A stretch of DNA of 64,000 nt from an uncultured Chloroflexia bacterium. GTDB taxonomy: Bacteria > Chloroflexota > Limnocylindria > Limnocylindrales > CSP1-4. Shown piece by piece: positions 8,846 to 44,560 of this stretch. The DNA lies in NCBI GenBank assembly GCA_963828965.1, contig CAWHGL010000002.1, forward strand, positions 386,714 through 450,713, written 5' to 3'. The first letter of the stretch is position 1, and the number at the start of each line of letters is the position of its first letter. The translations under genes were made by a program, and so were the position numbers. The notes under the pieces are model-generated. The model was given only the letters and a program-made list of their open reading frames with translations, did no database searches and was not told the origin of the DNA.

Positions 8846-8852
8846 GGTCGCC

Positions 8853-9928: not shown

Positions 9929-9932
9929 CCGG

Positions 9933-10733: not shown

Positions 10734-11707
10734 GCCGCAGCTCCCGGGTCGTCCTCGACCGAGGCGTGGCCGGTCAGCGACAGGAACACGTCGTCGAGGG
10801 TCGGGCGGCGCAGCGCGATGTCGTCGATCTGCACGTCGGCCTCGCCGAGGTCGCGGACGATCTGCATCAGGGTCTGCGAGCCGCCGGTCGCCGGCACCGT
10901 CAGCTTGCGGGTGTGCTCGTCGAGCATCGACCGGCCGATGCCGCTCCGCTCGAGGATCGCCTGCGCCTGCTCGATGGCGGCCCGGTCGTGGACCACGACC
11001 TCGACACGTTCGCCACCGACCTGCGCCTTGAGCTCGTCGGCCGTGCCGCGGGCGATGATCTTGCCGTGGTCGACGACGGCGATCGTGTCGGCCAGCTCGT
11101 CCGCCTCCTCGAGGTACTGCGTCGTGAGCAGCAGCGTCGTGCCCTCCCGAACGAGCGAGCGGATGACGTCCCACATCCCGAGCCGGCTGCGCGGGTCAAG
11201 GCCCGTCGTCGGCTCGTCGAGGAACAGCAGCCGCGGCCGTCCGATGAGCGCGCTCGCGAGGTCGAGCCGGCGGCGCATCCCGCCCGAATACGTCTTGACG
11301 ACCCGGTCGGCGGCATCGACGAGGTCGAACTGCTCGAGCAGCTCGCCGGCGCGCTTGCGGGATTCGGACGACGGCAGCTGGTACAGCCGGCCGAACATCC
11401 ACAGGTTCTCGCTGCCGGTCAGGTTCTCGTCCACCGCGGCGTACTGGCCGGACAGGCCGATGACGTGTCGGAGCTCCTTGGCCTGCCTGACCACGTCGAA
11501 ACCGGCCACCGTCGCCCGCCCGGCGTCCGGCTTGAGCAGGGTCGCGAGGATCCGGACGGTCGTGGTCTTGCCGGCGCCGTTCGGGCCGAGCAGACCCAGC
11601 ACCGTGCCTTCCTCGACGGTCAGGTCGACGCCATCGAGAGCTCGGACCTCGGACTTGCGGGAGCGGTAGATCTTGACGAGGCCTTCGGCCGTGATCGCAG
11701 CGGTCAT
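10730..11707 (-). CDS. ABC exporter ATP-binding protein (DrrA-like)
   Basis: Walker A GPNGAGKTTT, signature YSGGMRRRL, Walker B LLFLDEPTTGLD. The C-terminal extension is typical of the DrrA/daunorubicin-type family. Confidence 0.9.
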   Translation of the reverse strand: MTAAITAEGLVKIYRSRKSEVRALDGVDLTVEEGTVLGLLGPNGAGKTTTVRILATLLKPDAGRATVAGFDVVRQAKELRHVIGLSGQYAAVDENLTGSENLWMFGRLYQLPSSESRKRAGELLEQFDLVDAADRVVKTYSGGMRRRLDLASALIGRPRLLFLDEPTTGLDPRSRLGMWDVIRSLVREGTTLLLTTQYLEEADELADTIAVVDHGKIIARGTADELKAQVGGERVEVVVHDRAAIEQAQAILERSGIGRSMLDEHTRKLTVPATGGSQTLMQIVRDLGEADVQIDDIALRRPTLDDVFLSLTGHASVEDDPGAAA

Positions 11708-14406: not shown

Positions 14407-15647
14407 TCAGGACGGCAGGGCGTCGAGGAACCGGATGCTGTCGACGACGTCGCTGGGCACGCTGCCGTTCGCGTCGAGGATCTCGAAGACGACGGTGGCG
14501 CCGTCGACCTCGGTGACGATCACCGTGTCCGCCGATCCGATCGGCTGGCTGAAGTCCCCGTCGACCCAGCTGTGGGGGACCCATCGCAGGACGTTCCCAT
14601 CAGCGCATCCCGCGGGTCCAGTCCGGCCTTGGTGGTGAGCGCCACCTGGACGGCGCGATGCCCGTCGACGGTCGTGTCCTGGGTGTCCGTGACGGTCAAC
14701 CCGTCGGACGTCGAGAGATAGGTCACGACCGCGTCGATGCCGGGATCGAGGTCGACGCGACCCTTCGCGTCGTCGCACGGGTCGACGAACCCGTCGATGT
14801 CCTTCCAGGCCTTGAATACCGACCCGTCGCTGCCTTCGAGGGAGATGGCGTCGTGCATGTTGCCGTGGCCGCGGTAGGTCCCGGCCGGGAGGGTGAACTC
14901 GAAGAACGGGGTGAAGTCCGCAGCGATGCCGGGTCCGCCGTCGCTTTCGCCGACGCCGGAGCGGATCCAGTCGCCGGGCGCGATCGCGCTCCGCGCCGAG
15001 CACTGGTCCGCGATGAGCTCGAGCGTCAGGTGGTCGGCCGAGGGCATCGACCAGCGATAGCGGCCGACGTCCTTGTCGAGACAGCCGCCGGGGGATGAGC
15101 GGGACACGAACCGGAGCACGCCCGGTTCCACCTCATCCGCCCGCGCTTCCTGGCCGAAGCTCCGGTCACCGAGGTCGATGTTGAAGCCGGGTGCCTGGGG
15201 ATCGTCCTTGAGATCGTCGAAGCGGATCGACGAGGTCGCCGACTGGGTCAGACCACCGACCGGTCGGACCGGGGCGATCCACGTTCCCACGATGGCGGCG
15301 GGGACCGGCCCGGGGGCCACGACGGCCGGGGAGGCCGCCGAGGACGGTTCCGCGGTCGAGTTCCCCGGCGAAGCGGTCGGGCCGCCCACGGCCGGCAGGT
15401 CGCGCCGGCTCATCAGGAGCGCCCCACCGACGAGCACGATGAGGACCGCCACGATGGCGGTGAGCAGGGCTGGTCGGGCCATGAGGCCGGACATGGGGTT
15501 CCACCTTCCTGGGGTGATCCAGGCAGGCCGCTGCCGGGTGCGGGCGGTCTGCCCGAGGATGTCGATGAGGTAGTCGGGCGTCCGCGGATCGGCCAGCTCG
15601 GTCAGCGCCCCTGGCAGCTGGCGTTCGAAGCGATCGATCGGGGTCAT
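14407..15647 (-). pseudogene. ECF-sigma-associated single-pass membrane protein (putative anti-sigma), extracytoplasmic Cys-containing domain; one frame break near 14592
   Basis: Start overlaps the sigma stop (ATGA). N-terminus MTPIDRFERQLPGAL...PDYLIDILGQTARTRQRPAW, then a TM helix. The C-terminus continues in ORF 14407-15003 (NVLRWVPHSW...DVVDSIRFLDALPS); the break is at a G run (ATGGGA). Confidence 0.75.
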
Positions 15648-16207
15648 GCGGATCGCCCTTCCGGCACGGCGGCGTCAGCGCTTCCACCGTCTGACCCGAC
15701 CGACGTGCGCAGCACGCCGAGCGAGCGATGGAGGCGCGACTTGGCCGTGCCCAGTGGGATCCCGAGGATGCCGGCCACCTCCGGCAGGGGCATCCCGAGG
15801 AAATAGTGGAGGACGACGATGGCGCGCCAGTCGGGCTCCAGGGCCCGGAGAGCGCGATCGAGCAGGTCACGGTCCACGACGCCGGCGCTGAAGTCGGCGG
15901 TGGACGGACCGTTGATCGGGATGAGCTCGACCTCGACCGGGCGCCGACGGCGCTTGCGGACGAGGTCGAAGCAGGCATTGACGAGCAATCGGTGGAGCCA
16001 GGCGTCGAACCGCTCCACGTCGCGCAACGTGGGCAGGTCCCGCCAGCACCGGACGAGCGCCTCCTGGACCGCGTCTCGGGCGAGCTCGTGGTCGCGGAGG
16101 ATCAAGCGGGCGGCCGCGTCCAGGCGCGCGACGGCCGCGCCGGCCAGCACGGCAAAGGCGTCATGATCGCCCCGCTGCGCTCGCTCGACGAAGTCTCGCT
16201 GGTCCAC
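15644..16207 (-). CDS. ECF (group 4) RNA polymerase sigma-70 factor
   Basis: Region 2 (FDAWLHRLLVNACFD) and region 4.2 (EVAGILGIPLGTAKSRLHRS). GTG start at 16207. Confidence 0.9.
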   Translation of the reverse strand: MDQRDFVERAQRGDHDAFAVLAGAAVARLDAAARLILRDHELARDAVQEALVRCWRDLPTLRDVERFDAWLHRLLVNACFDLVRKRRRRPVEVELIPINGPSTADFSAGVVDRDLLDRALRALEPDWRAIVVLHYFLGMPLPEVAGILGIPLGTAKSRLHRSLGVLRTSVGSDGGSADAAVPEGRSA

Positions 16208-16255
16208 GGTCGCCTCTGTTCCAGACGGTGCGGCCCCATCGGCCGCACTCGAAGC

Positions 16256-17713: not shown

Positions 17714-19005
17714 CTAGGTGCCGGCGGCGTCGGCAGCTCGTCGTGGAACCGGATGCTGTCGACGACGTCCTGCAGCGATCGACCGGCCATCGTCGAGCCC
17801 TCGTGTCGGGCGATCTCCATGACGGATCGTGGCTCCGTCGACCTCGGTCACGACGAGCGAGCCAGTCCGACGCCGATCGGCGCCGTTCCAGAAGCCGTCG
17901 GCCCACGAGCGCTGGACCCACGTCAGCACACCCGTCCGGATCGTCCTTGTTGCCGTCGAACGTCCAGCACGGCGCATGGAGGTCGTCGCCGATGCGGAAC
18001 GTCACCTCGACCGCACGATGACCGTCGATCGCCAGATCCTCGGTAGCCGTGACCGTGAACTGCGGCGACGGTGCCGATGTACCGGAGGAAGGCATCGATG
18101 CCCGGCTGCAGGTTCGCTCGGCCCTTGGTGACGGTCGCAGGGTCGACGAACCCGTCGAGATCCTTCCAGATCTTGAACGTCTGCGCGCCGTCCTGGCTGT
18201 TGACGACGATGTTGTCCCGAGCGCCCCACCAGGCGGTCCATGTCTCGCGTGGAAGGGTGAACTCGACATAGGGTCGGAAGGCGGCTGCGATCCCCGGACC
18301 GCCGACGTTGTCGTGGGCGAGCGAGTGCTGCCAGGTGCCGGGGATGATATTGCCTCGCGAGGCGCACGGGTCGGACCCGATCGCCGCCAGCGTCAGCCAT
18401 CCGCCATCCGCCGACACGGACCAGGTGTACCGGCCCGTGTCGCTCTTGGAGCATCCTCCGATCGTCGCTTCAGAGCTGAACTCGATCACGCCCGGAGCCA
18501 CCTCCTGCGACCTGCGAACGCAGGCTCTCGACACGCTCGGGCGTCTCGAACGCGAAGCCCGCGATCGGCCGGTCGGCGCTCTCCTTCAGGCCGAAGCTGA
18601 TGACGTTGGGTGGGCCGCCGCCGATGACCTTGTTCTTGGCGACCCATCCGCCCACGAGGGCCTCGGGAAGGGGTCGCGGCGTGGCGTACGCGTCCGCAGC
18701 GGCGTCCGATGCGGGCGGAGCCACCGCCGGGGCCGGTGATGTCGTCGGCGAAGTCTGGTTCGTCCTCCCCGAGCTCAGCGCGAGGCGCCCCGAGGATGAC
18801 GATGATCAGGCTGGCGAGGACCGCCAGCACGGGAAGTCGAGTCATGGTGGTTGGCCTCCAGAAGGGCCACCGCCAGGGTCGTCGGTTCTGGGCCGTCGTC
18901 CCGACTGCGTCGAGGATGGTGGCGATGGGCGCGATCCGGGGCCTCGTTCGGGCCGACGTCGAGCCAGGCTCGGGCGATCCGATCGAAGTCGCGTTCGGTG
19001 CTCAT
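17714..19005 (-). pseudogene. ECF-sigma-associated single-pass membrane protein, paralog of 14407-15647; at least six frame breaks
   Basis: Homologous segments lie in seven ORFs whose frames step 0,2,1,0,2,1,0 (19005, 18845, 18724, 18534, 18269, 17977, 17820): MSTERDFDRIARAWLDVGPNEAPDR / TM MTRLPVLAVLASLIIVILG / GGCSKSDTGRYTWS...GGPGIAAAFRPYVEFTLP / AIDGHRAVEV / VVTEVDGAT / DVVDSIRFHDELP. The 3' end is uncertain. Confidence 0.7.
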
Positions 19006-19553
19006 GCCATCCGTCCTTCGTTCGCGACGAGGCCCCGGTCATCCGCATCGATGGCGGCGCGCAGCACCTTCGTCGCGTAGTGGAGTCGAGACCGGGCCGT
19101 CCCGGGCGGGATGCCGAGCGACTCGGCGATCTCGACCAGCGGCAGACCCTGGTGGTGATGCAGGACGAAGACCGCGCGCTGCTCGATCGACAGGCGCCGG
19201 AACGCCCGATCGAGCGCGTCGCGCTCATCGATGGTGATCAGGTCATCCGGACCGGCCGGCCCGTCGACCGGCAGGACTCGGACATTGGCCGACCATGACC
19301 GGCGACGCCTGGCCTCGGCGTAGCAGGCATGGACCAGCACCTTGCGGAGCCAGGCCTCGAAGCGGTCTGGTTCCCGGAGGGCGGGAAGCTGGCGCCAGGC
19401 GTTGATGAGGGCGCCCTGCAGGGCATCCTCGGCCAGGTCGTTGTCGCGCAGGATCCGGGCGGCGAGCGCGTACATCCGGTCGCTGGTCAGCTGGACCAGT
19501 GCCCCGAATGCCTCGCGGTCGCCGCGCTGGGCCCGCTCGACGAGATCTCGCAC
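19002..19553 (-). CDS. ECF RNA polymerase sigma-70 factor
   Basis: Intact. I prefer GTG at 19553 (GAGGGA 6 nt upstream; gives an N-terminus VRDLVERAQRGD like the paralogs) over the ORF start at 19586. Region 4.2 is EIAESLGIPPGTARSRLHYA. Confidence 0.88.
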   Translation of the reverse strand: MRDLVERAQRGDREAFGALVQLTSDRMYALAARILRDNDLAEDALQGALINAWRQLPALREPDRFEAWLRKVLVHACYAEARRRRSWSANVRVLPVDGPAGPDDLITIDERDALDRAFRRLSIEQRAVFVLHHHQGLPLVEIAESLGIPPGTARSRLHYATKVLRAAIDADDRGLVANEGRMA

Positions 19554-19606
19554 CGACGCTCCCTCGGTTCGGCCCGTCGCCGCCACGTGCGGCGCCGGGT
19601 CACCCT

Positions 19607-19637
19607 CTATGAGTCGGTCGCGGGGTCGGAACGTTCA
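19607..19637 (-). promoter_or_regulatory. putative ECF-type promoter (TGAACGTTCC-N16-CATAGAG)
   Basis: Lies in the 19587-19687 intergenic region. Best match to the shared motif. Confidence 0.6.
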
Positions 19638-19687
19638 GCCGTTCCCGGTCCCCGTGCTGCGGACGGTGGCGCGTCGGGGGCGGCGGG

Positions 19688-20438
19688 TCAATCCCAGCGG
19701 AAGAAGCGGACCGTCAGGCCGATGGCGACGACGGCCCAGACGGCGAGCACGACCCAGGGACCGGACACGACCGCGGCCGAGCCGAGCGCCATCCGCAGCG
19801 TGTCGGAGAGGGCCGCGCCCGGGAGCACGCCGGCGAGCGTGGCCAGGGGCGCGGGCAGGCGGTCCACCGGCACGACGATCCCGCCGAGCAGCAGGATCGC
19901 GATGAAGAGCCCGTTCGCCAGGGCGAGCGTCGCCTCGGCCCGGAGCGTGCCCGCAAGCAGCAGGCCCAGGCCCGCGAAGGCCGCGGTCCCGAGGGCGAGG
20001 GCCACCACGAGCGGCCGCCCCCGACGCATCCGGTCCAGGCGACCAGCCGAGGAACACGACGGCGACGGCAACGAGCAGGATCGTCTGCAGGATCACGATG
20101 ACCGCCACCGAGGCGACCTTGGCCGCCACCAGCCCGCTCCGCCCCAGCGGTGACCCGCCGAGCCGCTTCAGGACGCCGTAGTGGCGCTCGTACGCGGTGG
20201 CGATGCCGAGGTTCACGAGCCCGGCCGCGACGACCGCCAGCGCCAGCGACCCGGGCAACAGGAACTCGACGGCTGACGTCCCCGGCGTCTCGACGATCCC
20301 GGTCGTGCTGAAGAAGACGAGCACCACGACCGGGATGATCGCCACGGCCAGCAGGTTCTCGCCGCGCCGGGCGGTGAGCCGCAGCTCGACCGACGTCTGG
20401 GCCAGGGCCGCCCGTCCGGGGCTCGCGGCGGCGCTCAC
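19688..20438 (-). pseudogene. ABC-2 type transporter permease; one frame break near 20045
   Basis: The N-terminal half is in ORF 19635-20438 (through VAVAVVFLGW). The C-terminal half is in ORF 19688-20071 (PLVVALALGTAAFAGLGLLLAG...). The start overlaps the ATPase stop. Confidence 0.75.
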
Positions 20439-21416
20439 GACGCCCGCTCCGCCGTCGCCCGGCCGACGAGCTCGAGGTACGCGTCCTCGAGCGACCCGCC
20501 GACGGTCCGCGATTCGACGATCAGTCGATCGGCCTCGCGACAGGCCACGGCGACCGAGGCGACCAGGGCCGGGCTGGGGGCCGCGTCGGCGATCTCGTAG
20601 CGCCCGGGCTCCAGCTCGAGCACGGGCGACCCGGCGGCTGCGGCGAGGCCGGCAAGGGCGTCCGCCGCGAGCGGGCGATCGAGTCGGAACCGGAGCCGGG
20701 GCCGCAGTCCGGCGGCCAGCCCTGCCGGCACGTCGTCGGCAACGACACGACCATCGACGAGGATCACGATCCGGTCGGCCAGTCGCTCCACGTCGACGAG
20801 ATCGTGGGAGGTGAGCAGGATGGCCAGGCCGTCCGTCCGCAGCTCGCCGACCAGGGCGCGCACCTCGGCCCGCGCCTCGGGATCCATGCCCGCGGTCGGC
20901 TCATCGAGGAGGATGACTTCGGGCCGCCCGACGAGCGCGACCGCGAGGGCGAGGCGCTGGCGCTCGCCGCCCGACAGTCGCCGATACGGGGTCGTGGCCA
21001 CGGCGCCCAGGCCGACACGCTCGAGGAGCGCGTCCGGGTCGTCCGGCGTGGCGTGGAACCGGGCGTACTGGTGGAGCGTTTCGCGCGGCCGGGCGCGCAT
21101 GTCGAACCCGCCCGACTGGAGCATGAGCCCGACGCGCGCACGCAGTTCGCGTCCGCCGGCTCGTGGGTCGCTACCGAGCAGCCGGACCGTGCCGCCGTCG
21201 GCGGCCCGATAGCCCTCGACGATCTCGACGGTCGTCGTCTTGCCGGCGCCATTCGGGCCGAGCAGCGCGACGAGCTCGCCGGGCCGGACCTCGAACGACG
21301 ACGCCGTCGACGACGGTGCGCGGACCGTAGCGCTTGACCAGACCGTCGACCGCGATGGCCGGCGCCGGGTCGGGCCTGACCGTGGACCCGGAGCCCGCCG
21401 CCCCGGAACCCGGCAT
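20435..21416 (-). pseudogene. ABC transporter ATP-binding protein; one frame break near 21297
   Basis: AIAVDGLVKRYGPRTVVDGV is in ORF 21171-21419. The rest, including Walker A GPNGAGKTTT (read in the upstream extension of that frame), LSGGERQRLALA and ILLDEPTAGMD, is in the frame of ORF 20435-21124. Confidence 0.8.
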
Positions 21417-22006
21417 CACGGCGCGATCTTGGCGTACTGGCGGTCGAAGTCCGCCGCGCCGACCTCCCCGATCTGGATCGACCGCAGGATCCCCTCAGCA
21501 TCGATGAAGTACGTCTGCGGCCGACCGGCGACCCGGTACGTGCTCTTGAGCGCCTTGTCGGGATCCTCGACCGTCGGCCAGGTGGCACCGTACTCGGCGA
21601 CGAACTGTCGCGCGGGTTCGACTGGATCGTCGGTCAGCACCCCGACCACTGCGAGACCGTCGGCCGCGTACTGGGCTTCCTTGTCGAGCAGCAGGGGAAA
21701 CTCCTCGCGGCAGGGCACGCATGACGGCCCCCAGAAGTTCACGATGACCGGGCGGCCGGCGTAGTCGGCCAGGTCGAACGGGGCGCCGTCGAGAGTGGTC
21801 CCCACGATCGGTGGAGCCGGCTGGCCGATCGATGCCCGTGGCCCGCCCGTGCCGATCCCGGCGTTGACGAACAACCACACGCCGACGGTCGTGACGACGG
21901 CGATGGCGAGAGCGATCAGGATCGGACGTCGCGGCGTGGTGGGACCTCGGGCGTGGCGCCCTACTTGATGGTCGCCGTCCCCGTCATGGTCGGATGGACC
22001 GTGCAC
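21416..22006 (-). CDS. TlpA/ResA-like membrane-anchored thioredoxin (thiol:disulfide oxidoreductase)
   Basis: One TM helix, then the VIVNFWGPSCVPCREEFP CxxC motif. Last redox gene of the oxidase operon. Start uncertain: the ATG at 22006 overlaps the upstream gene by 46 nt. Confidence 0.8.
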   Translation of the reverse strand: MHGPSDHDGDGDHQVGRHARGPTTPRRPILIALAIAVVTTVGVWLFVNAGIGTGGPRASIGQPAPPIVGTTLDGAPFDLADYAGRPVIVNFWGPSCVPCREEFPLLLDKEAQYAADGLAVVGVLTDDPVEPARQFVAEYGATWPTVEDPDKALKSTYRVAGRPQTYFIDAEGILRSIQIGEVGAADFDRQYAKIAP

Positions 22007-23053
22007 AGGAAGGTGTACTCACCGGGCGGCAGGGGCCCCGCGTCGTAGACGCGCGTGTCGACCCCGTTGAACGTCTCGCCCTGGAAGACCGGCGCGCCGT
22101 CCGGCCCCTTGAGCTCGAGGTTGTGGGGCACGTTCGCGTCCTCGTTGATGAGCGCGATGGTGAACGGGATGGCCGCCGGGCCGCTGATGTGGTCGGTGTC
22201 GAACTGGATGTCCTTGGCCGTCAGGACGATGGTCGCGGTCGGTGCCGCCGAGGGTGGCGGGGCGTCGCCGGGCGGCGCGGACGCGCCCGGGGAACCGGCC
22301 ACGGCCGGCGGGGCGGTCGCGTTGACATCGCGGGGAGGGATCCAGCCGAGCTGGATGACGGCCGCGCCGACGACGAGCCAGAGCAGGCCGGCGATGAGCA
22401 GCGTCGGCGTGCGCGGCGCCGGGATGTTCTCGAGATGGCCGGTCGTGTCGGCCTCGACGGTCTTGACGTACTCCTTGCGGGCGTCGACGAGCCAGCCGAA
22501 GAGCGAGACGACGAGCGCGATGAGCCCGGCCAGGAGCAGCCACTCCCCGAAGACGAGACCGAGCATGACCAAGGTCGCGCCGAAGGCCGCGAGGAACGGC
22601 CGGAACGAGGGTCCGGGCATGTGCACGCCGGGCGGTGGTCCGTCATGGATGACGGCGGGCAGGGCCGGCGCAGTCTCACCGATGTCGTGGTCGTAGTTGC
22701 GCAGCGCCTCCGCCATCCAGTACAGCAGCGTGATGGCCAGGATGATCAGGCCGAAGAACAGGAGATAGCCGCCGAACACGAGCCCGAGCAGGACCGTGAA
22801 CGCCCCGAACGAGGCGAGGATCGGCGCGAAGGACGGTCCGGGCATGTGGATGCCGGGCGGCGTCCGCGGTTCGATGCGCTGCTTGCCGCGGCTGGGCCGG
22901 CGGGGCGTGGAACAGCCCCAGGAAGATCCACAGGAGGATGGCCACCACCGCGAAGACCATGATGATGGGCAGGAGCAGGATGATCGCTCCCCAGTCGGGG
23001 ATGACGAAGTCCGCCATCAGGTCGAGGATGGTTCGCCAGATCTCCTCCAGCAT
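21961..23053 (-). pseudogene. polytopic membrane protein with two tandem HMPGPSF-type TM hairpins fused to a C-terminal cupredoxin (type-1 Cu) domain; one frame break near 22895
   Basis: N-terminus in ORF 22676-23053 (MLEEIWRT...FHAPPA), the rest in the frame of ORF 21961-22845. Repeat units GIHMPGPSFAPILASFGA... and GVHMPGPSFRPFLAAFGA.... The C-terminus VPHNLE...FLCTVHPTMTG supplies His/Cys/His/Met ligands. Confidence 0.75.
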
Positions 23054-23068: not shown

Positions 23069-23263
23069 TCAGTCGCGCGGGGAGCCGACGGCCAGGACGT
23101 AGGCCATGATCGCCATCGCGATGCCGAGGGCGAAGAGCATGGTCGCGCCGGCGTAGTCCACATGCCAGCCGCCCCACGTCGGGACGACCAGGAACACGAT
23201 CGAGAGCGCGATGAAGATCAGGCCGACCAACGCCGCGTTGCGGGGGTGACGGAGCAGATGCAT
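23069..23263 (-). CDS. small two-TM protein, putative oxidase subunit IV-like
   Basis: 64 aa, two hydrophobic helices, directly after ctaE. Assignment is by position only. Confidence 0.5.
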   Translation of the reverse strand: MHLLRHPRNAALVGLIFIALSIVFLVVPTWGGWHVDYAGATMLFALGIAMAIMAYVLAVGSPRD

Positions 23264-23271: not shown

Positions 23272-23940
23272 CTACTTCCCAGGCAACAGGTAGAGGAGCG
23301 AGAACAGCAGGATCCAGACGACGTCCACGAAGTGCCAGTACAACGAGCCCGCCTCGACCGCGTCATGGTGCTTGGCGGAGAACTGGCCGATCATGCCGCG
23401 GTAGAGGATCACGCCCAGCATGATCACCCCGCCGAAGACGTGGGCGCCGTGGAAGCCGGTCAGGGTGAAGTAGGTCGTGCCGAACGTACCCGAGGTCATC
23501 GTGATCGGATGCTCCTCGTGGCCGAGCATCCAGTAGTCCGTGAACTGCATCACGAGGAAGATGATGCCGAGGACGAAGGTCACGGACATGTTCCGCAGGA
23601 ACGACGTTCGGTCGCCACGGCGGATGGCCCACACCGCGAACTGGCACGTGAACGAGCTGATGATCAGCAGGATCGTGGCCGGCCCCACGAAGGGCAGGAT
23701 GGCCAGCTGGTACTGGGTCTGCGGCACCACATCCGGGATGTAGGGCGGCCAGATCGAGGCGTTCGCCCGGCTGTTGAAGTAGGCCGCGAACAGGCCGGCG
23801 AAGAACATCACCTCGGAGGTGATGAACAGGAGCATCCCCAGGACGGGATTGCTGATCCCACCCGTGGCGTCGTGCGCGTAGTTCTCGACCGGGTTGTGCT
23901 GGATCGGCTCGAGGGCCTGGCTGTCGGTGGCCATGGTCAT
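23272..23940 (-). CDS. ctaE: cytochrome c oxidase subunit III
   Basis: 222 aa. FITSEVMFFAGLFAAYF, TGFHGAHVFGGV and YWHFVDVVWI are typical subunit III motifs. Confidence 0.92.
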   Translation of the reverse strand: MTMATDSQALEPIQHNPVENYAHDATGGISNPVLGMLLFITSEVMFFAGLFAAYFNSRANASIWPPYIPDVVPQTQYQLAILPFVGPATILLIISSFTCQFAVWAIRRGDRTSFLRNMSVTFVLGIIFLVMQFTDYWMLGHEEHPITMTSGTFGTTYFTLTGFHGAHVFGGVIMLGVILYRGMIGQFSAKHHDAVEAGSLYWHFVDVVWILLFSLLYLLPGK

Positions 23941-23946: not shown

Positions 23947-25581
23947 CTAGTGCCCGGTCTGCGGGGCATGGCGGGCGTCGAACACCGGCCGCTCGGAGCG
24001 GATCTCAGGCAGATGGTCGAAGTTGTAGGCCGGCGGCGGCGACGAGGTCGCCCATTCGAGCGTGTTGGCCTGCCACGGGTCGTCACCGGCGGGCGCTCCG
24101 CTGCGCAGCGAGATGAAGATGTTCCACAGCAGGGGCACCATGCTCGCGGCGATGAGGAAGCCGCCGAACGTGGCAGCCAGGTTCAGGTCGTTCCAGCCCG
24201 CCGTCGACGAGTAGTCGGCGATCCGCCGGGGCATGCCGGCCAGGCCGAGCTCGTGCATCGGGAAGAACGTCAGGTTGAACCCGACGAACATGATCACGAA
24301 CTGGACCTTGCCCAGCGTCTCGTTGAGCATCCGGCCGGTCATCTTGGGGAACCAGTAGTAGAAGCCGGCCATGACCCCGAAGACCGAGCCGCCGAACAGC
24401 ACGTAGTGGATGTGGGCCACGACCCAGTACGTGTCGTGCAGGGCGAAGTCCACCGGCACCGAGGCGCTGAACGCGCCGTTGATGCCGCCGATGAGGAACA
24501 TCGACAGGAAGCCGATCGCGAACAGCATCGGCGTCGAGAAGCTCAGCTTGCCGCGCCACATCGTGAAGATCCAGTTGAACATCTTCACGCCCGTCGGGAT
24601 GGCGATGAGGAAGGTCATGAGGCTGAAGAACGGCAGGTAGACCGCACCGGTCGTGAACATGTGGTGGGCCCACACGGAGAAGCCGAGGGCACCGATCGCC
24701 GCCGTCGCGAAGACGAACGCCTTGTAGCCGAACAGCGGCTTCCGGCTGAACACCGGCAGGATCTCGCTGATCATGCCCATCGCCGGCAGGACCATGACGT
24801 AGACGGCCGGGTGCGAGTAGAACCAGAAGACGTTCTGATAGAGGATCGGGTCGCCGCCGTTCGCCGGGTCGAAGAAGGCCCCGCCGTAGTTGCGGTCGAT
24901 GAACAGCATGATCAGGGCGCTCGTGATGACCGGCGTCGCCATCAGCACGAGGACCGAGGTGACCAGCATCGTCCAGACCATGATCGGCATCCGGAACAGG
25001 GTCATGCCCGGAGCGCGCATCTTGAAGATGGTCACGAGGAAGTTGATGGAGCCCAGGATCGAGCTCGTCCCGATGAGGATCAGGGCGACGATCCACAGGT
25101 CCTGGCCCGGTCCGGGCGAGGACAGCGGGGCGTCCTGGGCCAGTGGGCTGTAGCTCGTCCAGCCGGCCGCGGCCGTCGGCCCGACGAAGAAGCTCAGGAC
25201 GAGCAGCGAGCCGGCGAGCGGCAGCATCCACAGCGACAGCGCGTTGATGCGCGGGAAGGCCATGTCCGGCGCGCCGATCTGGAGCGGCACGACGTAGTTG
25301 CCGAAGCCCGCCAGCATCGGGATCACGAACAGGAAGATCATGAACGTGGCGTGCATCGTGAACAGGCCGTTGTACTGCTGGTCGGTGAAGAACTGGAGCC
25401 CGGGCTGGGCCAGCTCCGTGCGCACGCCAAGGGCGAGCAACCCGCCCAGGAAGAAGAAGATGAACGAGTTGATGATGTACATGATCCCGATCTTCTTGTG
25501 ATCGGTCGTGGTCACCCACTCGTAGATCGCCCCCCGGGTGGAGCGGTAGGCAGGGGCGGCGGGGTGGAGCGCGGTCGCCAC
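23947..25581 (-). CDS. ctaD: cytochrome c oxidase subunit I (heme-copper oxidase, A-type)
   Basis: TTDHKKIGIMY, WFYSHPAVYV and VWAHHMFTTG motifs. I prefer GTG at 25581 (GAGGAG 7 nt upstream, just after the ctaC stop) to the ORF start at 25638. Confidence 0.95.
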   Translation of the reverse strand: MATALHPAAPAYRSTRGAIYEWVTTTDHKKIGIMYIINSFIFFFLGGLLALGVRTELAQPGLQFFTDQQYNGLFTMHATFMIFLFVIPMLAGFGNYVVPLQIGAPDMAFPRINALSLWMLPLAGSLLVLSFFVGPTAAAGWTSYSPLAQDAPLSSPGPGQDLWIVALILIGTSSILGSINFLVTIFKMRAPGMTLFRMPIMVWTMLVTSVLVLMATPVITSALIMLFIDRNYGGAFFDPANGGDPILYQNVFWFYSHPAVYVMVLPAMGMISEILPVFSRKPLFGYKAFVFATAAIGALGFSVWAHHMFTTGAVYLPFFSLMTFLIAIPTGVKMFNWIFTMWRGKLSFSTPMLFAIGFLSMFLIGGINGAFSASVPVDFALHDTYWVVAHIHYVLFGGSVFGVMAGFYYWFPKMTGRMLNETLGKVQFVIMFVGFNLTFFPMHELGLAGMPRRIADYSSTAGWNDLNLAATFGGFLIAASMVPLLWNIFISLRSGAPAGDDPWQANTLEWATSSPPPAYNFDHLPEIRSERPVFDARHAPQTGH

Positions 25582-25592: not shown

Positions 25593-26789
25593 TCAGTTCA
25601 CCGTGAGGGTGCCGGTCATCGTCGGATGGACCGTGCACACGAAGGAGTAGGCCCCCGCCGGAAGCGGCGGCACGTCGTAGGTCTTCTGGGCGACCCCGGT
25701 GATGATCTCCCCCATGAAGACCTCCTGGCCCGTGGGGGTGCCTTGATGGATGGCCACGTTGTGTGGCACGTCCGCGTCCTTGTTGTCGAAGGCGATCTGG
25801 AACGGCGTGTTCGCCGGTGCCGTCAGCTCGGACTGCTCGTACTGGATGTTCACGGCGCTGACCTGCAGCGGCGGGCCGGCCGCCGGCGCGCCGGACGGAG
25901 CGGGTTCACCCGACGCACCGGGCGCCACGCTCGGCGGCGGGGCCGGCGTCGCGTTGGCCTTGGCGACCTGGTCGGCCAGCCAGCCGTCGAAGTCGGTCGG
26001 GGAGAGGGCCTTGACCTGGAACAGCATCAGGCTGTGGCCGGTGCCGCACAGCTCGGCGCACTGGCCGTTGAAGGCCTGGCCCTCCGGCAGCGGCCCGGCC
26101 ATGTCGGCATCCACGTTGAAGTCGAAGGCGTTGATCCGCCCTGGCACGACGTCGCGCTTGAACAGGAATTGTGGGACGTAGAAGGCGTGGATGACGTCGG
26201 GGCTCTCCAGCGTGAGCCGGATCTGGCGGCCGGCCGGCACGTACATGCCACCGCCGGCGCCGTTCGGGAGGAGCTGGGTGTAGAGGACCTTGTCGCCGGT
26301 CTCGTCGAGGTAGTCGAACTTCCACTGGAACTGGCCGGCGACCGCGCGGATGCGCGTCTCGGGCGTGGCCGACACCGCGTCGACCTCGTTGAGGGTCTGC
26401 CACGAGATCACGAACATGAACGCGACGATGATCGTCGGGACGACGGTCCAGACGATCTCGGCCACGTTGTTGCCGTGGGTCTGGGCCGGCAGGACGTCGT
26501 CGCCGGGCTTGCGCCGGTAGCGCAGGACGGTCCAGACGATCAGGCCCTCGACCACGAAGAAGATCACCACGGCGATCAGGAAGATGATCGTGTAGAGCTC
26601 GCGGATCTTCGCGCCCTGCGCGGTCACGGCGGCCGGCGGATAGAGGCTTTCGACGATCCGGCCACCGTAGCCCAGTGGATCGCCGGCGCTCAGCAGCACC
26701 ACGGCAGCGACACCGATGAGCAGGACCGCCCCGATGACGATGGCGGTCAGGGCGTATGAGGAGCGACCGGTCCTGGGTGAGCTCGCCAT
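25593..26789 (-). CDS. ctaC: cytochrome c oxidase subunit II (CuA) with a C-terminal cupredoxin (type-1 Cu) domain; no heme-c motif
   Basis: ATG 26789. Two TM helices. CuA site VIHAFYVP...CAELCGTGHSLM. After a Pro/Ala linker there is a second domain, VPHNVAIH...FVCTVHPTMTGTLTVN. No CxxCH anywhere. Confidence 0.88.
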   Translation of the reverse strand: MASSPRTGRSSYALTAIVIGAVLLIGVAAVVLLSAGDPLGYGGRIVESLYPPAAVTAQGAKIRELYTIIFLIAVVIFFVVEGLIVWTVLRYRRKPGDDVLPAQTHGNNVAEIVWTVVPTIIVAFMFVISWQTLNEVDAVSATPETRIRAVAGQFQWKFDYLDETGDKVLYTQLLPNGAGGGMYVPAGRQIRLTLESPDVIHAFYVPQFLFKRDVVPGRINAFDFNVDADMAGPLPEGQAFNGQCAELCGTGHSLMLFQVKALSPTDFDGWLADQVAKANATPAPPPSVAPGASGEPAPSGAPAAGPPLQVSAVNIQYEQSELTAPANTPFQIAFDNKDADVPHNVAIHQGTPTGQEVFMGEIITGVAQKTYDVPPLPAGAYSFVCTVHPTMTGTLTVN

Positions 26790-27029
26790 GCAGGTCCTCA
26801 GCGGAGATGGGGGCAACGCACCCGGACCAGGCGCGTCACCGTGTGCAGGTCGCGTCCGAACCGCCCGGCCCGGACCGCGGCCATGATACCCGAGCACCGA
26901 GGTCGCGCGTGCTCCGCGCACCGGGTCCGGCGACGATCGAGCGGCCGGTCGCAGCGGTTCGTGGGACGATGACCGGCGATGCGCAGTGGACCACCGTCCC
27001 AACGTTCGTTCCGGGTCGGGCGCCCGAGC

Positions 27030-28052
27030 ATGGCGACCATCGCGGCCGCCGCGGCGGGCGTCGGTGCGTGGCTGGCCGTGGCCGGACCGGTCGCGGCGCA
27101 CGGTCCCGTGCCGGCCGCTCCGCCGGACGCGGCGTCGCTCCTCCTCGACTGGTCGTTCGAGCCGCTGCCGACCCTGGCCATCGCGGTCGCCATCGGCTGG
27201 TGGGTGTGGGCCGTCCGGCGGGTCGACCGGGCGCATCGCGCCAACCCCGTGCCGCGCCGTCGGTCGGTCGCGTTCGGGCTGGGCATGCTCGCGATCGCGT
27301 TCGCCCTGCTGTCGGGTATCGACCGCTATGACACGACCCTGTTCTCGGTCCACATGGTCCAGCACGTGCTGCTCGCCATGGTCGCGGCTCCGCTCCTCGC
27401 CCTGGCCGCGCCGATCACGCTGATCCTGCGGGTCGCCTCCCACGAGACCCGCGTGCGCTGGATCCTGCCGGTCCTCCACTCGCGGGTCGTCCGCGTGCTG
27501 GCATTCCCGGTCGTGGCCTGGCTGCTCTTCGCCGCGGTCATGTGGGGCACCCATTTCTCACGCCTGTTCGACGCGGCGCTCGAGGACCCCTTGATCCACG
27601 ACGTCGAGCACCTGCTGTTCCTCTCGACGGCCCTCCTGTTCTGGTGGCCGGCAGTCGCGCTGGATCCCTCGCCGTGGCGGATGTCGCATCCGGTGCGCGC
27701 GCTGTACGTGTTCCTGCAGATGCCCCAGAACACCTTCCTCGCGGTGACGATCCTGGGCGCGTCGGCCGCGCTCTACCCGCACTACGCCTCGCTGACCGGC
27801 TCCTGGCTGCCGTCCCCGGTCGCGGACCAGCAGCTCGCGGCGGGGATCATGTGGATCACCGGGGACCTCATCTTCCTGACGGCGATCATGGCCATCCTGT
27901 ACGGCTGGATGAAGAGCGAAACCCGCGACGCGGCGCGGGCGGATCGCCGGGCCGATACGGAGCGGGTCGCCATCCGCGAGCGCGAGGCCAGGCTTGCGGA
28001 ACGGCTCGCGCGCGAGCGCGAGGAGGCTCAGGGGAGCGGCGCGTCCAGGTAG
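27030..28052 (+). CDS. ctaG: cytochrome c oxidase assembly factor CtaG (Bacillus/actinobacterial Caa3_CtaG type)
   Basis: Polytopic, with FSVHMVQHVLLAMVAAPLL, THFSRLFD and HDVEHLLFL motifs. Divergent from ctaC. Start taken at MATIAAAA. Confidence 0.8.
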   Translation: MATIAAAAAGVGAWLAVAGPVAAHGPVPAAPPDAASLLLDWSFEPLPTLAIAVAIGWWVWAVRRVDRAHRANPVPRRRSVAFGLGMLAIAFALLSGIDRYDTTLFSVHMVQHVLLAMVAAPLLALAAPITLILRVASHETRVRWILPVLHSRVVRVLAFPVVAWLLFAAVMWGTHFSRLFDAALEDPLIHDVEHLLFLSTALLFWWPAVALDPSPWRMSHPVRALYVFLQMPQNTFLAVTILGASAALYPHYASLTGSWLPSPVADQQLAAGIMWITGDLIFLTAIMAILYGWMKSETRDAARADRRADTERVAIREREARLAERLAREREEAQGSGASR

Positions 28053-29014
28053 CGTCGATAGGCTGCGGGGTCGACGTTCCCGCCGCTGACGACCCCGACG
28101 ACGGGACCCGCGCCGACCGCCGTCCCGAGCTCGTCCCCGTGGAATGCCATGGCGGCGACGACGAGCGCCCCGGACGGCTCGGCGACGAGCCGCGAGCGCT
28201 CCGCCGCCAGGCGCACGCCCGCGGCGATCTCGGCCTCGCTCACGGTCACGACGCCATCGAGGAGGGTCCGCAGATGCGCGAACGTCCGTACGCCCAGCGA
28301 CTGGGTCCGCGTCCCGTCAGCGCTCGTCCGCGACACGTCCGCCGCCGGCCAGCGGACGATGACGCCCTGCGTCAGGGAGTCGCGCGCGTCCGCGGCGAGG
28401 TCGGGCTCGACGCCGATGACGAGCGCGTCGGGTCGCAGGGCCTTGAGCGCGACCGCCACGCCACTGGCCAGGCCGCCTCCACCGATCGGCACGAGGACCG
28501 CGGCGACGTCCGGCAGGTCTTCGACGATCTCGAGTCCGACGGTGCCCTGGCCGGCGATGATCCGATCGTCGTCATAGGGCGGGATGATGGCCAGCCCGCG
28601 CTCAGCGGCAATGGTCTCGGCGACCCGCTGGCGTTCATCCGATGACGTCCCGACCGTGACGATCTCGGCGCCGTCGGCCTCGACTCGTTCGCGCTTGACC
28701 GTCGGCGCATCCGACGGCATGACCACGACCGCCGGGATGCCGAGCAGGAAGGCTGCGCGGGCGACGCCCTGGGCATGGTTGCCCGATGAGTACGTGATGA
28801 CACCGCGGCGCCGCTCGTCCTGGGAAAGGGTCGAGATGGCGTTGTAGGCGCCACGGATCTTGAACGCGCCGATCGGCTGGAGGCTTTCGGCCTTGAGCCA
28901 CTGGCGCGCGTCGGGTGGACCGAACGCGACCAGCGGGGTGCGGAGTGCGATCCCGCGCAGGCGCTCGGCCGCGGCACGGATGTCGTCGATGGTGACGAGC
29001 GGCTCGTCGGTCAT
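28028..29014 (-). CDS. PLP-dependent threonine/serine dehydratase (fold type II, no ACT regulatory domain)
   Basis: SLQPIGAFKIRGA (PLP Lys), SSGNHAQGVA and VPIGGGGLASG motifs. ATG at 29014. Confidence 0.85.
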   Translation of the reverse strand: MTDEPLVTIDDIRAAAERLRGIALRTPLVAFGPPDARQWLKAESLQPIGAFKIRGAYNAISTLSQDERRRGVITYSSGNHAQGVARAAFLLGIPAVVVMPSDAPTVKRERVEADGAEIVTVGTSSDERQRVAETIAAERGLAIIPPYDDDRIIAGQGTVGLEIVEDLPDVAAVLVPIGGGGLASGVAVALKALRPDALVIGVEPDLAADARDSLTQGVIVRWPAADVSRTSADGTRTQSLGVRTFAHLRTLLDGVVTVSEAEIAAGVRLAAERSRLVAEPSGALVVAAMAFHGDELGTAVGAGPVVGVVSGGNVDPAAYRRYLDAPLP

Positions 29015-29028
29015 CCGTGGACGGAGCG

Positions 29029-29373
29029 CTATCGACGCTCGCGATCGACCGCGCTCTGGCAGTCGATGCAGTGGGCGGCCCACGGGAGGGCCTCGAGCCG
29101 GGCGGCCGGGATCGGGTTTCCGCAGCGCAGGCACGTCCCGAAGGTGCCGGCATCGAGGCGGGCGAGCGCCGTGTCGACGAGCTCGAGCTGCTGGGTGGCC
29201 CGGTCACGCAGGGCGAGGTCGCGCTGCTGCTCGAAGACCTGGCTTGCGGCGGCGGCCTGCGATCCGTAGGTCATCTGCCCGGGCGCCTGGATCGTCTCCT
29301 CGACATCGGCCACGAGCCGCGCTCGCTCGACGAGCAGGGCGGCGCGCGCGGCGTCGGGGTCGAGCTCGGTCAT
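29029..29373 (-). CDS. DksA/TraR-family C4 zinc-finger protein
   Basis: 114 aa. Coiled-coil N-terminus, then CLRCGNPIPAARLEALPWAAHCIDC. Confidence 0.8.
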   Translation of the reverse strand: MTELDPDAARAALLVERARLVADVEETIQAPGQMTYGSQAAAASQVFEQQRDLALRDRATQQLELVDTALARLDAGTFGTCLRCGNPIPAARLEALPWAAHCIDCQSAVDRERR

Positions 29374-29414
29374 GGCGTGGACTGTACGCCGCGGATCAGC
29401 CGGTGCGACCGGCG

Positions 29415-29431
29415 TATACTCCGGGGGAGTA
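29415..29431 (+). promoter_or_regulatory. putative promoter -10 (TATACT) overlapping a 6-3-6 inverted repeat TACTCC-GGG-GGAGTA
   Basis: Located 21-37 nt upstream of the YHS gene ATG, with SD GAGGAGG between them. The operator interpretation is inference. Confidence 0.35.
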
Positions 29432-29451
29432 CTGACAGAGGAGGTGCCAGG

Positions 29452-29622
29452 ATGGCCGTCGCGATGGATCCGGTGTGCGGGATGGAGGTCGATACCGCCA
29501 CGTCCCTGCTCTTCTTCGAGTACCAGGGAACGACCTACTGGTTCTGCGGCAAGGGCTGCCTGCTCGAATTCAAGGACGATCCCGAGCGCTATCTCGCCGA
29601 GGACTACGTCCCGTCGATGTGA
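29452..29622 (+). CDS. YHS-domain protein (56 aa, metal-binding TRASH/YHS type)
   Basis: DPVCGMEVD...YQGTTYWFCGKGCLLEFKDDPERY; strong SD. Confidence 0.8.
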   Translation: MAVAMDPVCGMEVDTATSLLFFEYQGTTYWFCGKGCLLEFKDDPERYLAEDYVPSM

Positions 29623-43213: not shown

Positions 43214-43255
43214 GGTCGCCAGTGTGGCACGCGGGGCGTAGCATGGCGCCACTGA

Positions 43256-44521
<1,266 letters not shown>

Positions 44522-44560
44522 GCGAGGCTCCCGCGCCGTGCTGTCACGGTTCGATCTCGA

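Follow-up and report, generated by a model that had tools for sequence, protein, structure and literature searches.

The caa3-type oxidases are defined by a cytochrome c fused to subunit II, and this cytochrome c domain packs compactly. Blue copper proteins are also known as donors to terminal oxidases, namely halocyanin, sulfocyanin, plastocyanin and, as a proposal, auracyanin. In the SoxM supercomplex of Sulfolobus, the membrane-anchored sulfocyanin SoxE links the Rieske/cytochrome b module to the CuA subunit. The haloarchaeal ba3 (B-type) oxidases contain a fusion of halocyanin, which is thought to be their redox partner, to the membrane subunit IIa (PMC3128077). In Chloroflexus, auracyanin B is a membrane-anchored type-1 cupredoxin for which a role in respiration has been proposed (PMC3150298).

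Analysis of a 64-kb stretch of Limnocylindria DNA (the window) revealed an oxidase operon of the bacterial A type in which a predicted type-1 copper (T1Cu) domain is fused to the CuA subunit, uniting the blue copper donors with the caa3-style fusion. The same two themes are united by a second predicted T1Cu domain on a subunit IV-like protein and, in related genomes, by a cytochrome c-T1Cu fusion on complex III. The host lineage (Ellin6529/Limnocylindria) is among the most abundant uncultured lineages of soil, and surveys score just "aa3 cytochrome c oxidase." The nearest precedent for the CoxB-cupredoxin protein is the halocyanin-subunit IIa fusion of the haloarchaeal enzymes. A full-text literature search, with most subscription journals outside its reach, found no description of a CoxB-T1 cupredoxin fusion.

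Domain architecture of subunit II

The CoxB protein was assigned to subunit II because it matched COX2_TM (residues 52 to 130, E=2e-11) and COX2 (residues 182 to 261, E=5e-14) above the Pfam cutoffs, contains the CuA ligand set, and is encoded next to coxA and coxC. The CoxB equivalog model of NCBIfam gave 162.3 bits (cutoff, 147.7). The preliminary description had counted two transmembrane (TM) helices; the AlphaFold2 model, with a pTM of only 0.56, contains three N-terminal helices (residues 9 to 33, 57 to 91, and 108 to 137), one signal-anchor-like and two canonical. The CuA site, described earlier as normal, comprises H201, C244, E246, C248, H252, and M255 in the pattern H...C-x-E-x-C-x3-H-x2-M, and all six ligands are invariant across 46 homologs. 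Q155-W156 of the same domain is conserved. A fold search with the whole model returned subunit II chains only, with CtaC and CoxB chains matching at an E value of about 1e-16; the extra C-terminal domain was covered by no solved structure, as at most 285 of the 398 columns were aligned.

This extra domain had been described as a stretch of about 100 amino acids (aa) with type-1 copper ligands, in the position of the cytochrome c of caa3 oxidases, and domain analysis of the CoxB C terminus bore this out. Pfam revealed a Cupredoxin_1 match at residues 303 to 397 (E=6e-14, 52 bits) and a match to Copper-bind, the plastocyanin/azurin family, at residues 312 to 398 (22.1 bits; cutoff, 21.2). The C terminus combines a beta-sandwich of about 100 aa, modeled with eight strands at a pLDDT of about 90, with the His...Cys-xn-His-xn-Met set of type-1 cupredoxins. 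Comparison with amicyanin revealed agreement ligand for ligand (PHNV and C-x2-H-x2-M), and a profile of the domain matched amicyanin with an E value of 6.6e-10 and auracyanin A with 2.5e-7. The predicted T1Cu ligands H343, C385, H388, and M391 are invariant across the 46 homologs, although overall identity among homologs is 60 to 87%. By sequence, this part of CoxB is a conserved type-1 cupredoxin domain, which presumably binds copper.

The CuA and cupredoxin domains are joined by a segment that had been noted as a Pro/Ala/Ser linker and is also rich in Gly. Residues 283 to 303 have a pLDDT below 50 and are thus predicted to be disordered. Across the CoxB homologs, the linker (reference residues 280 to 307) is 18 to 38 aa long and consists of 34% P, 22% A, 19% G, and 13% S (together 88%). 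Because the linker is long and predicted to be disordered, the cupredoxin is probably tethered and not rigidly docked; the "hard-wired" connection proposed earlier fits only in a loose sense. Subunit II of the Thermus caa3 oxidase (2yev_B) aligns to CoxB residues 61 to 284 and then runs into its own cytochrome c domain. By this alignment, the CoxB cupredoxin takes the place of that cytochrome c domain.

The oxidase operon and its second cupredoxin

The genes coxA and coxC lie directly downstream of coxB, and this order is kept in the related loci L001 and L002 (coordinates are given in Table 1). The coxA product scored 714.6 bits with the CtaD_CoxA equivalog of NCBIfam (cutoff, 670.75), and its best match in the PDB was mycobacterial CtaD (E=4e-198). 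Its translation contains FWFYSHPAVY; YSHPAV in subunit I is presumably the A2-type signature typical of caa3 enzymes, with Tyr-Ser in helix VI replacing the D-channel Glu. The likely start of coxA is a GTG at 25581 preceded by GAGGAG, and the longest open reading frame (ORF) extends to 25638. Homologs of a 64-aa membrane ORF downstream of coxC are called at the same position in L001 and L002; this ORF matched no family and no NCBIfam model.

Table 1 Features of the oxidase locus (positions in the window)
Feature	Position	Strand	Basis
ctaG (Caa3_CtaG family) oxidase assembly factor, divergently transcribed	26979..28052	+	PF09678 E=2e-75
coxB/ctaC subunit II, 398 aa: signal-anchor helix, 2 TM, CuA domain, P/A/G/S linker, type-1 cupredoxin	25593..26789	-	Translation, Pfam, NCBIfam, AlphaFold2
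CuA domain of CoxB, residues 145-262, strands in model	26004..26357	-	AlphaFold2, alignment to mycobacterial CtaC and Thermus caa3 subunit II
Flexible Pro/Ala/Gly/Ser linker of CoxB, residues 283-303	25881..25943	-	pLDDT <50, homolog comparison
Type-1 (blue) copper cupredoxin domain of CoxB, residues 304-398	25596..25880	-	Pfam, amicyanin alignment, invariant ligands, model
Predicted T1Cu ligand codons of CoxB	H343 25761-25763; C385 25635-25637; H388 25626-25628; M391 25617-25619	-	
coxA/ctaD subunit I, A-family oxidase, YSHPAV motif	23947..25581	-	COX1 E=1e-163 (Pfam), NCBIfam, PDB match
coxC/ctaE subunit III	23272..23940	-	COX3 E=3e-35 (Pfam)
Conserved 64-aa two-helix membrane ORF between coxC and the CtaF-like fusion	23069..23263	-	Homologous genes at same place
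CtaF-like cupredoxin fusion: N-terminal TM, two CtaF-like two-helix repeats (HMPGPSF motif), sixth TM, G/A/P/S linker, type-1 cupredoxin	21961..23053	-	Pfam, orthologs
Cupredoxin ligand codons of the CtaF-like fusion	C 22003-22005; H 21994-21996; M 21985-21987	-	
TlpA/ResA-like extracytoplasmic thiol-disulfide oxidoreductase	21416..22006	-	AhpC-TSA and Redoxin (Pfam)

The operon holds a second cupredoxin fusion, which the preliminary description missed while recognizing the one on CoxB. Its product matches Cyt_c_ox_IV (PF12270) with 29 bits (cutoff, 26.9) as well as Cupredoxin_1, and its cupredoxin, on a linker of about 35 to 65 aa, is 47% identical to that of CoxB. The fusion was found at all 57 related loci with enough downstream DNA; 44 orthologs were aligned. 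An extra G at position 22890 breaks the reading frame of the window's copy, which encodes 364 aa once the frame is repaired; the L002 copy is intact (378 aa). A programmed frameshift was considered and rejected because an otherwise identical short-read contig does not contain this base and most orthologs are intact.

The positions of ctaG and of the thiol-disulfide oxidoreductase gene are conserved in L001 and L002, and a YHS-domain protein is encoded near the operon. A probable role of the TlpA/ResA-like protein is to maintain the copper-site Cys ligands in the reduced state while the sites are assembled. In the window, L001, and L002, no Sco or PCuAC gene was found at a distance of up to 10 kb from the operon. 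Cupredoxin-fold copper chaperones exist, and the fused domains might likewise handle copper, each loading CuA and CuB on the outside of the cell as a chaperone, store, or sensor in the manner of PCuAC or CupA. The lack of Sco and PCuAC genes at these distances and the presence of the oxidoreductase, CtaG, and the YHS-domain protein would fit such a role. We consider it improbable, since the canonical type-1 set His...Cys-x2-His-x2-Met with amicyanin spacing is invariant in 31 domains of three types of tethered-cupredoxin fusion, and since a Rieske/cytochrome b operon (see below) encodes this domain as a fusion to a cytochrome c, an arrangement that is sensible for electron transfer only.

To place the CoxB fusion among its relatives, databases and a genome collection were searched. 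All 120 best database homologs of CoxB, from several sources (NCBI, JGI, ENA, and Logan), have the COX2 plus Cupredoxin_1 architecture. The genome collection contains 440 stretches with a gene for a CoxB relative; the best 80 of these loci all carry the cupredoxin, and all are from Chloroflexota/Limnocylindria metagenome-assembled genomes (MAGs). The CoxB-cupredoxin fusion occurs in hundreds of Limnocylindria genomes, annotated solely as "cytochrome c oxidase subunit II." The CoxB-type cupredoxin family is also found as a free lipoprotein and in tandem proteins of two to five domains. Near-identical RNA contigs from four soil metatranscriptomes, a kind of library whose contigs can contain DNA, cover coxB including the cupredoxin part (one over 25736 to 25886).

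An error of assembly or gene calling could have joined coxB to a neighboring cupredoxin gene, or the fusion could be a decaying remnant. The extra G at 22890 shows that the assembly is not free of indel errors, and frameshifts interrupt the second fusion gene in several related long-read MAGs. The chance that the CoxB fusion is such an artifact is nevertheless negligible: its architecture is uninterrupted in the 120 homologs and 80 genome loci, its ligands are invariant at the overall identities given above, and the gene is matched by RNA contigs. Conservation effectively refutes this reading.

Heme c and the proposed electron path

The preliminary description had stated that neither this protein nor its operon contains a CxxCH motif and that no cytochrome c gene is visible in the window. 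Both statements held: a scan of stop-to-stop ORFs of at least 60 aa in all six frames of the 64-kb window yielded no CxxCH, and neither the operon nor the window contains a cytochrome c gene. Pfam analysis of about 50 further ORFs of the window revealed no Rieske, cytochrome b, ACIII, or cytochrome c gene, and a motif scan of 82 oxidase loci revealed no Rieske motif. The surroundings of the operon in relatives, 1.32 Mb in all, contain only four isolated CxxCH motifs in likely coding frames, none at a conserved position.

Proteins composed of a TM helix, a cytochrome c, and a cupredoxin are among the closest relatives of the CoxB cupredoxin. They form a large family in which the architecture is always the same, membrane-anchored and monoheme (one CxxCH). 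In four of four contigs examined, the gene is the fourth of an operon that also encodes cytochrome b6, subunit IV, and a Rieske protein. One of these contigs, from a related MAG (contig_10163; 775,312 bp), carries both an oxidase operon (L035) and the Rieske/cytochrome b6 operon, about 36 kb apart. The relatives with these Rieske operons have a CoxB about 60% identical to that of the window. A tblastn search of the window with one complex III neighborhood (L083) matched only the two cupredoxins and weak paralogs, which places the Rieske/cytochrome b6 operon outside the window; its presence elsewhere in the same genome is suggested by the relatives. The operon of the relatives opens with an overlapping gene for a GltD-like FeS flavoprotein, and its cytochrome b passes the ExtP cutoff of NCBIfam; it may therefore be a specialized module and not the main complex III.

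Because the relatives' operon encodes a monoheme cytochrome c-cupredoxin, in one case on the oxidase contig itself, heme c is likely to lie immediately ahead of the copper relay. Judged from these genes, a cytochrome c probably takes part in the respiratory chain, and the "copper-only" entry path suggested earlier finds no support in its original form.

The reading that we favor, with a probability of roughly 0.6, is that the operon encodes the A2-type oxidase of a monoderm lineage and that electrons leaving complex III reach CuA by way of tethered T1Cu domains. The electron-entry side of the oxidase would then consist of covalently tethered type-1 copper domains replacing cytochrome c, one on a tether of about 20 to 30 residues at the C terminus of CoxB and one on the longer linker of the CtaF-like subunit. 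Electrons would pass from menaquinol to the Rieske/cytochrome b6 complex, from there to its own membrane-anchored heme c, and on to the T1Cu domain fused to the same subunit. This domain would reduce one or both of the oxidase-tethered T1Cu domains, followed by CuA, heme a, and heme a3-CuB. Direct transfer from T1Cu to CuA, like the other transfer steps and their order, is inferred. The lineage has been reported to be monoderm (bioRxiv 10.1101/2021.08.23.457424), and anchoring of its electron carriers is therefore expected. Under a simple linear relay, the two oxidase-tethered cupredoxins look redundant.

A stricter form of this relay, which we put forward tentatively, would have three flexibly tethered T1Cu domains pass electrons from cupredoxin to cupredoxin, perhaps inside a III-IV supercomplex, with no diffusible or separately anchored cytochrome c left. 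Its three sites, as provisional as the form itself, would be the cytochrome c subunit of the Rieske/cytochrome b6 complex, the CuA subunit II, and the duplicated CtaF-like subunit. If true, Limnocylindria would have a copper-based bacterial equivalent of the cc-aa3 system of actinobacteria and the bc-caa3 system of Bacillus.

The immediate donor of CuA could instead be the carrier of complex III (heme c or its fused cupredoxin), as QcrC is in bcc-aa3. The oxidase cupredoxins would then be side ports that take electrons from other extracytoplasmic dehydrogenases or pass them out to copper enzymes such as NirK. Several observations are in line with this: the closest similarities of subunits I, II, and III are to actinobacterial aa3 enzymes with supercomplex structures; there is weak similarity to QcrC in the heme domain of the cytochrome c-cupredoxin (bc1_QcrC_actin, 26.9 bits; cutoff, 200); two tethered domains suggest more than one linear relay; the cupredoxin family includes the free and tandem proteins mentioned above; and nirK has been reported in Ellin6529 MAGs (bioRxiv 10.1101/2020.12.21.419267). 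We regard it as unlikely, since the CoxB cupredoxin is located exactly where caa3 has its cytochrome c domain, an entry module, and no dehydrogenase or NirK gene is conserved beside the operon in L001 and L002.

If the relay through tethered T1Cu domains is confirmed, these monoderm bacteria would have solved carrier retention without heme, and the aerobic respiration of these soil organisms would be tied more tightly to copper supply. It would also mean that the "cytochrome c oxidase" calls of metagenomes conceal differing donor chemistries. A compact CuA-linker-T1Cu fragment that can be expressed in the laboratory would become available for studies of copper-to-copper electron transfer.

Comparison with known systems

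The caa3 (A2) oxidases of Thermus thermophilus (2YEV) and Bacillus (CtaC) likewise belong to the A family and have YSHP in subunit I. They likewise have a built-in one-electron carrier domain at the C terminus of the CuA subunit, joined at the same fusion point, and the assembly factor adjoining the Limnocylindria operon belongs to the Caa3_CtaG family. In caa3, this carrier is a heme c domain with CxxCH; in the Limnocylindria CoxB, it is a type-1 cupredoxin without CxxCH, held, unlike in caa3, on a long linker predicted to be disordered. A second carrier on a CtaF-like subunit also distinguishes the Limnocylindria oxidase from caa3.

The actinobacterial bcc-aa3 enzymes of Mycobacterium (6ADQ, 6HWH, and 8HCR) and Corynebacterium (7Q21) match subunits I, II, and III best in both sequence and fold, and a CtaF-type (PF12270) subunit and a monoderm envelope are common to both. 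NCBIfam models built for the actinobacterial proteins score below their own cutoffs on the Limnocylindria proteins. The bcc-aa3 enzymes, like the proposed Limnocylindria chain, have no free carrier because their donor is part of complex III. This donor is the diheme QcrC, whereas the corresponding complex III subunit of the Limnocylindria relatives combines a monoheme cytochrome c with a cupredoxin. Actinobacterial CtaC has no extra domain, whereas the Limnocylindria oxidase carries two cupredoxins, and cytochrome b in the relatives is split like b6 and subunit IV, unlike that of bcc-aa3.

Amicyanin of Paracoccus and Methylobacterium is the closest solved structure to the CoxB cupredoxin by sequence, with all four copper ligands aligned; as a soluble protein of the periplasm it shuttles electrons between methylamine dehydrogenase and cytochrome c551i and has no relation to an oxidase subunit. 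Auracyanin B is a membrane-tethered T1 copper carrier from the same supergroup as Limnocylindria. It is a separate polypeptide working with ACIII, whereas the Limnocylindria domain is fused and the relatives encode a Rieske/cytochrome b complex; the ligand loop of the CoxB cupredoxin (C-x2-H-x2-M) is closer in length to that of amicyanin than to that of auracyanin B. The SoxM supercomplex differs in being archaeal, in having sulfocyanin as a separate subunit, and in belonging to another oxidase lineage. The halocyanin-IIa fusion is archaeal, belongs to a B-family oxidase, and involves the single helix of subunit IIa, with neither a second tethered domain nor a cytochrome c-cupredoxin partner. 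The Limnocylindria fusions, in contrast, belong to an A-family oxidase and are built on the CuA domain and a CtaF-like protein.

Subunit II and its C-terminal cupredoxin domain

The translated coxB reading frame scored over the cut-off of the NCBIfam CoxB equivalog, and Pfam searches revealed a cupredoxin behind the CuA domain (see the table). The protein was aligned with 45 homologs of 65 to 86% identity. In this alignment the CuA ligands H201, C244, E246, C248, H252, and M255, the type-1 copper (T1Cu) ligands H343, C385, H388, and M391, and residues Q155 and W156 are invariant; we equate W156 with the Trp through which CuA of other oxidases receives electrons and which is conserved there. 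The C-terminal domain matches amicyanin at every ligand (PHNV and C-x2-H-x2-M), and a profile from 31 such cupredoxin domains found amicyanin (6.6e-10), auracyanin A (2.5e-7), and then plastocyanins. The AlphaFold2 model of CoxB (mean pLDDT of 78.6) has helices at residues 9 to 33, 57 to 91, and 108 to 137, the CuA beta domain, a helix at residues 264 to 279, a disordered stretch (residues 283 to 303; pLDDT below 50), and an eight-stranded domain (residues 308 to 397; pLDDT of about 90). Across the homologs, the linker comprises 18 to 38 residues, 88% of which are P, A, G, or S. A fold search with the model revealed no solved structure that covers the extra domain.

The cupredoxin starts exactly at the start point of the cytochrome c domain in Thermus caa3 subunit II, and a scan of the window in all frames revealed no CxxCH motif. 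These results confirm the preliminary description, which had placed an additional T1Cu domain where caa3 oxidases carry cytochrome c, in an operon lacking CxxCH and a window without a visible cytochrome c gene.

Features of the oxidase locus, the remaining window, and the putative donor-side operon of relatives
Feature	Position	Strand	Remarks
coxB	25593-26789	-	398 aa, translated ORF
COX2_TM in CoxB	residues 52-130		Pfam
COX2 in CoxB	residues 182-261		Pfam
Cupredoxin_1 in CoxB	residues 303-397		Pfam, E=6e-14
Copper-bind (plastocyanin/azurin family) in CoxB			Pfam, narrowly over cut-off
coxA	downstream of coxB	-	COX1, E=1e-163
coxC	downstream of coxA
Conserved 64-aa membrane ORF	23069-23263	-
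Second cupredoxin fusion gene	21961-23053	-	not mentioned in the preliminary description
TlpA-like thiol-disulfide oxidoreductase gene	after second fusion gene
ABC-2 type exporter pair	19635-21415	-	ATPase and permease
Caa3_CtaG assembly gene			divergent from oxidase operon
DksA/TraR zinc-finger protein	29029-29373	-
YHS-domain protein	29452-29622	+	56 aa
ECF-type sigma factors	15647-16255, 19005-19634, 45493-46122, 56011-56598, 57997-58590		five genes
Glyoxalase-fold protein	43242-44624		resembles 4-hydroxyphenylpyruvate dioxygenase
Fumarylacetoacetate hydrolase family protein	53098-53955
Homogentisate dioxygenase match	61151-62407		N-terminal domain
Rieske/cyt b6/subunit IV/cytochrome c-cupredoxin operon	L083 (locus of a relative) 5968-11101		also L084, L085, L086

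The oxidase operon and its surroundings

coxB is followed by coxA, coxC, the 64-aa membrane ORF, and the second cupredoxin fusion gene. For coxA, the GTG at 25581, preceded by GAGGAG, is the probable start codon. CoxA contains the motif FWFYSHPAVY, which we take to define the A2 type; on this basis, the oxidase is most likely an A2-type enzyme. Its lineage has been reported to be monoderm (bioRxiv 10.1101/2021.08.23.457424).

The second fusion protein consists of an N-terminal transmembrane helix, two two-helix modules with an HMPGPSF motif in each, a sixth helix, a long linker of G, A, P, and S, and a cupredoxin. The two-helix modules match Cyt_c_ox_IV, the actinobacterial subunit IV family, over the Pfam cut-off. 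The cupredoxin shares 47% identity with that of CoxB; in 44 orthologs, the Cys, His, and Met ligands show no variation, and the first His ligand is conserved to at least 80%. The window copy is interrupted by a frameshift with an extra G at 22890. This base is missing from a short-read soil contig otherwise identical to the window, and its deletion restores a 364-aa ORF, which indicates that the frameshift is an assembly error and not biology. Comparable breaks of this gene were seen in long-read MAGs (loci L001/L004, L031, L038, and L048), and the breaks in the window and related MAGs look like homopolymer indel errors of the assemblies.

The ABC-2 exporter genes directly follow the thiol-disulfide oxidoreductase gene; the position of the pair is kept in L001, and the permease was seen in L002. 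The region (28028-29622) that separates ctaG from a solute-binding/ABC importer cluster encodes a pyridoxal-phosphate enzyme (PALP), the DksA/TraR protein, and the YHS protein, a set found at the equivalent place in L001 and L002. YHS domains are often tied to copper handling. Elsewhere in the 64 kb, some of the ECF sigma factor genes precede ORFs without a family match, which may encode anti-sigma factors. Three genes matching dioxygenases or hydrolases are scattered over the right half of the window; enzymes of the 4-hydroxyphenylpyruvate dioxygenase, homogentisate dioxygenase, and fumarylacetoacetate hydrolase types cooperate in tyrosine breakdown via homogentisate.

Distribution of the fusions and of related cupredoxins

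All of the best 120 database homologs of CoxB share the COX2 plus Cupredoxin_1 architecture and, where the source names them, bear no other name than "cytochrome c oxidase subunit II". A genome collection with a single representative of each species contains 440 stretches coding for a relative. The best 80 of these loci all include the cupredoxin, and their source MAGs bear the labels Chloroflexota, Chloroflexia, Limnocylindria, or Limnocylindrales, with three Anaerolineaceae and one Thermomicrobiales. Downstream DNA of 3.9 kb or more was available for 57 loci, and the second cupredoxin was found at a constant distance in all of them. An artefactual CoxB-cupredoxin fusion is ruled out by conservation. 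Soil and rhizosphere metagenomes contain near-identical DNA, and near-identical contigs from the RNA libraries of four soil metatranscriptomes fall on coxB, one of them within the cupredoxin part; RNA libraries can include DNA. Contig JBCLDE010000003.1 carries the oxidase locus twice in opposite orientations (L020 and L021); the 21-kb loci overlap, and a position-by-position comparison gives 99% identity. The cause is a large inverted duplication or else a palindromic artefact of the assembly.

A search with the CoxB cupredoxin domain alone against 1.84 billion cluster representatives revealed 2779 matching clusters, the best 150 of which were classified by motif. Membrane-anchored tandem cupredoxins form the majority of these 150 (two domains in 80, three or four in 13), with linkers rich in G, P, and E (e.g., P0121, P0127, P0129, P0132, and P0133, within the range P0121-P0270); one has five cupredoxin stretches by Pfam. 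Such proteins could parallel multiheme cytochromes, with copper in place of heme. The best 150 also include single-domain proteins, both oxidase fusions, and two proteins in which a transmembrane anchor and a monoheme cytochrome c are connected through a P/A/S linker to a cupredoxin. The representative P0146 is a 175-aa lipoprotein (lipobox LVAC) with a long P/A/S linker and one cupredoxin 71% identical to the CoxB domain; close relatives may use it as a free shuttle with a lipid anchor. P0191, a Ser/Thr protein kinase whose extracellular part contains CarboxypepD_reg and a cupredoxin of this family, may sense copper or redox state.

Proposed electron donors and comparison with known systems

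The anchored monoheme cytochrome c-cupredoxin belongs to a large family, with the same architecture in 120 of the 120 best matches and the source annotation "mono/diheme cytochrome c family protein/plastocyanin". Each of the four contigs inspected has its gene in fourth place of an operon, after those for cytochrome b6, subunit IV, and the Rieske protein. A gene for a GltD-like NAD(P)-binding FeS flavoprotein (611 aa) precedes and overlaps this operon, and downstream of it lies, in every case (L083-L086), a gene for a membrane protein with a Kelch beta-propeller. Anammox bacteria and Geobacter likewise have Rieske/cyt b modules linked to flavoproteins. The operon's cytochrome b exceeds the NCBIfam cut-off for ExtP (295.5 versus 290 bits), a protein of the selenite/tellurite-reduction operon. 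The operon is absent from the 64-kb window; contig_10163 of a relative (775,312 bp) carries both it and the L035 oxidase operon, about 36 kb apart. Hence, a c-type cytochrome is made by relatives, itself joined to a cupredoxin of the kind found on the oxidase subunits.

The preliminary description had proposed a copper-only entry path from T1Cu over CuA to heme a. The T1Cu entry module and its position are supported; the system is probably not cytochrome-free, because the putative complex III of relatives contains the cytochrome c-cupredoxin, and it is richer than described, with two tethered cupredoxins. In the proposed relay, the Rieske centre would reduce heme c, which would hand the electrons on to the cupredoxin of complex III; from there they would reach CuA through one or both cupredoxins of the oxidase. 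Type-1 copper would replace cytochrome c as the carrier, and covalent tethering would hold the carriers at the membrane. We infer every transfer step, the copper occupancy, and the redox potentials. Alternatively, the oxidase cupredoxins could be side ports serving other partners, with the complex III carrier reducing CuA directly, like actinobacterial QcrC. A role of the domains in managing copper is hard to reconcile with T1 ligands that never vary and with a cupredoxin-cytochrome c fusion inside a Rieske/cyt b operon.

In sequence and fold, subunits I to III are nearest to those aa3 enzymes of actinobacteria whose structures were solved within bcc-aa3 supercomplexes. The three subunits score below the NCBIfam actinobacterial cut-offs. 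In its proposed working, the enzyme resembles a caa3 oxidase, yet it lies outside that class, as it lacks the heme c domain that defines it. Literature on the lineage names its oxidase only coxABC or "cytochrome c terminal oxidase", and no description of the CoxB-cupredoxin fusion was found in the full-text literature, the coverage of which was incomplete. The nearest published precedent found is the halocyanin-subunit IIa fusion of haloarchaeal B-type oxidases (PMC3128077), and the nearest analogue within the Chloroflexi supergroup is auracyanin B, which is anchored separately (PMC3150298).
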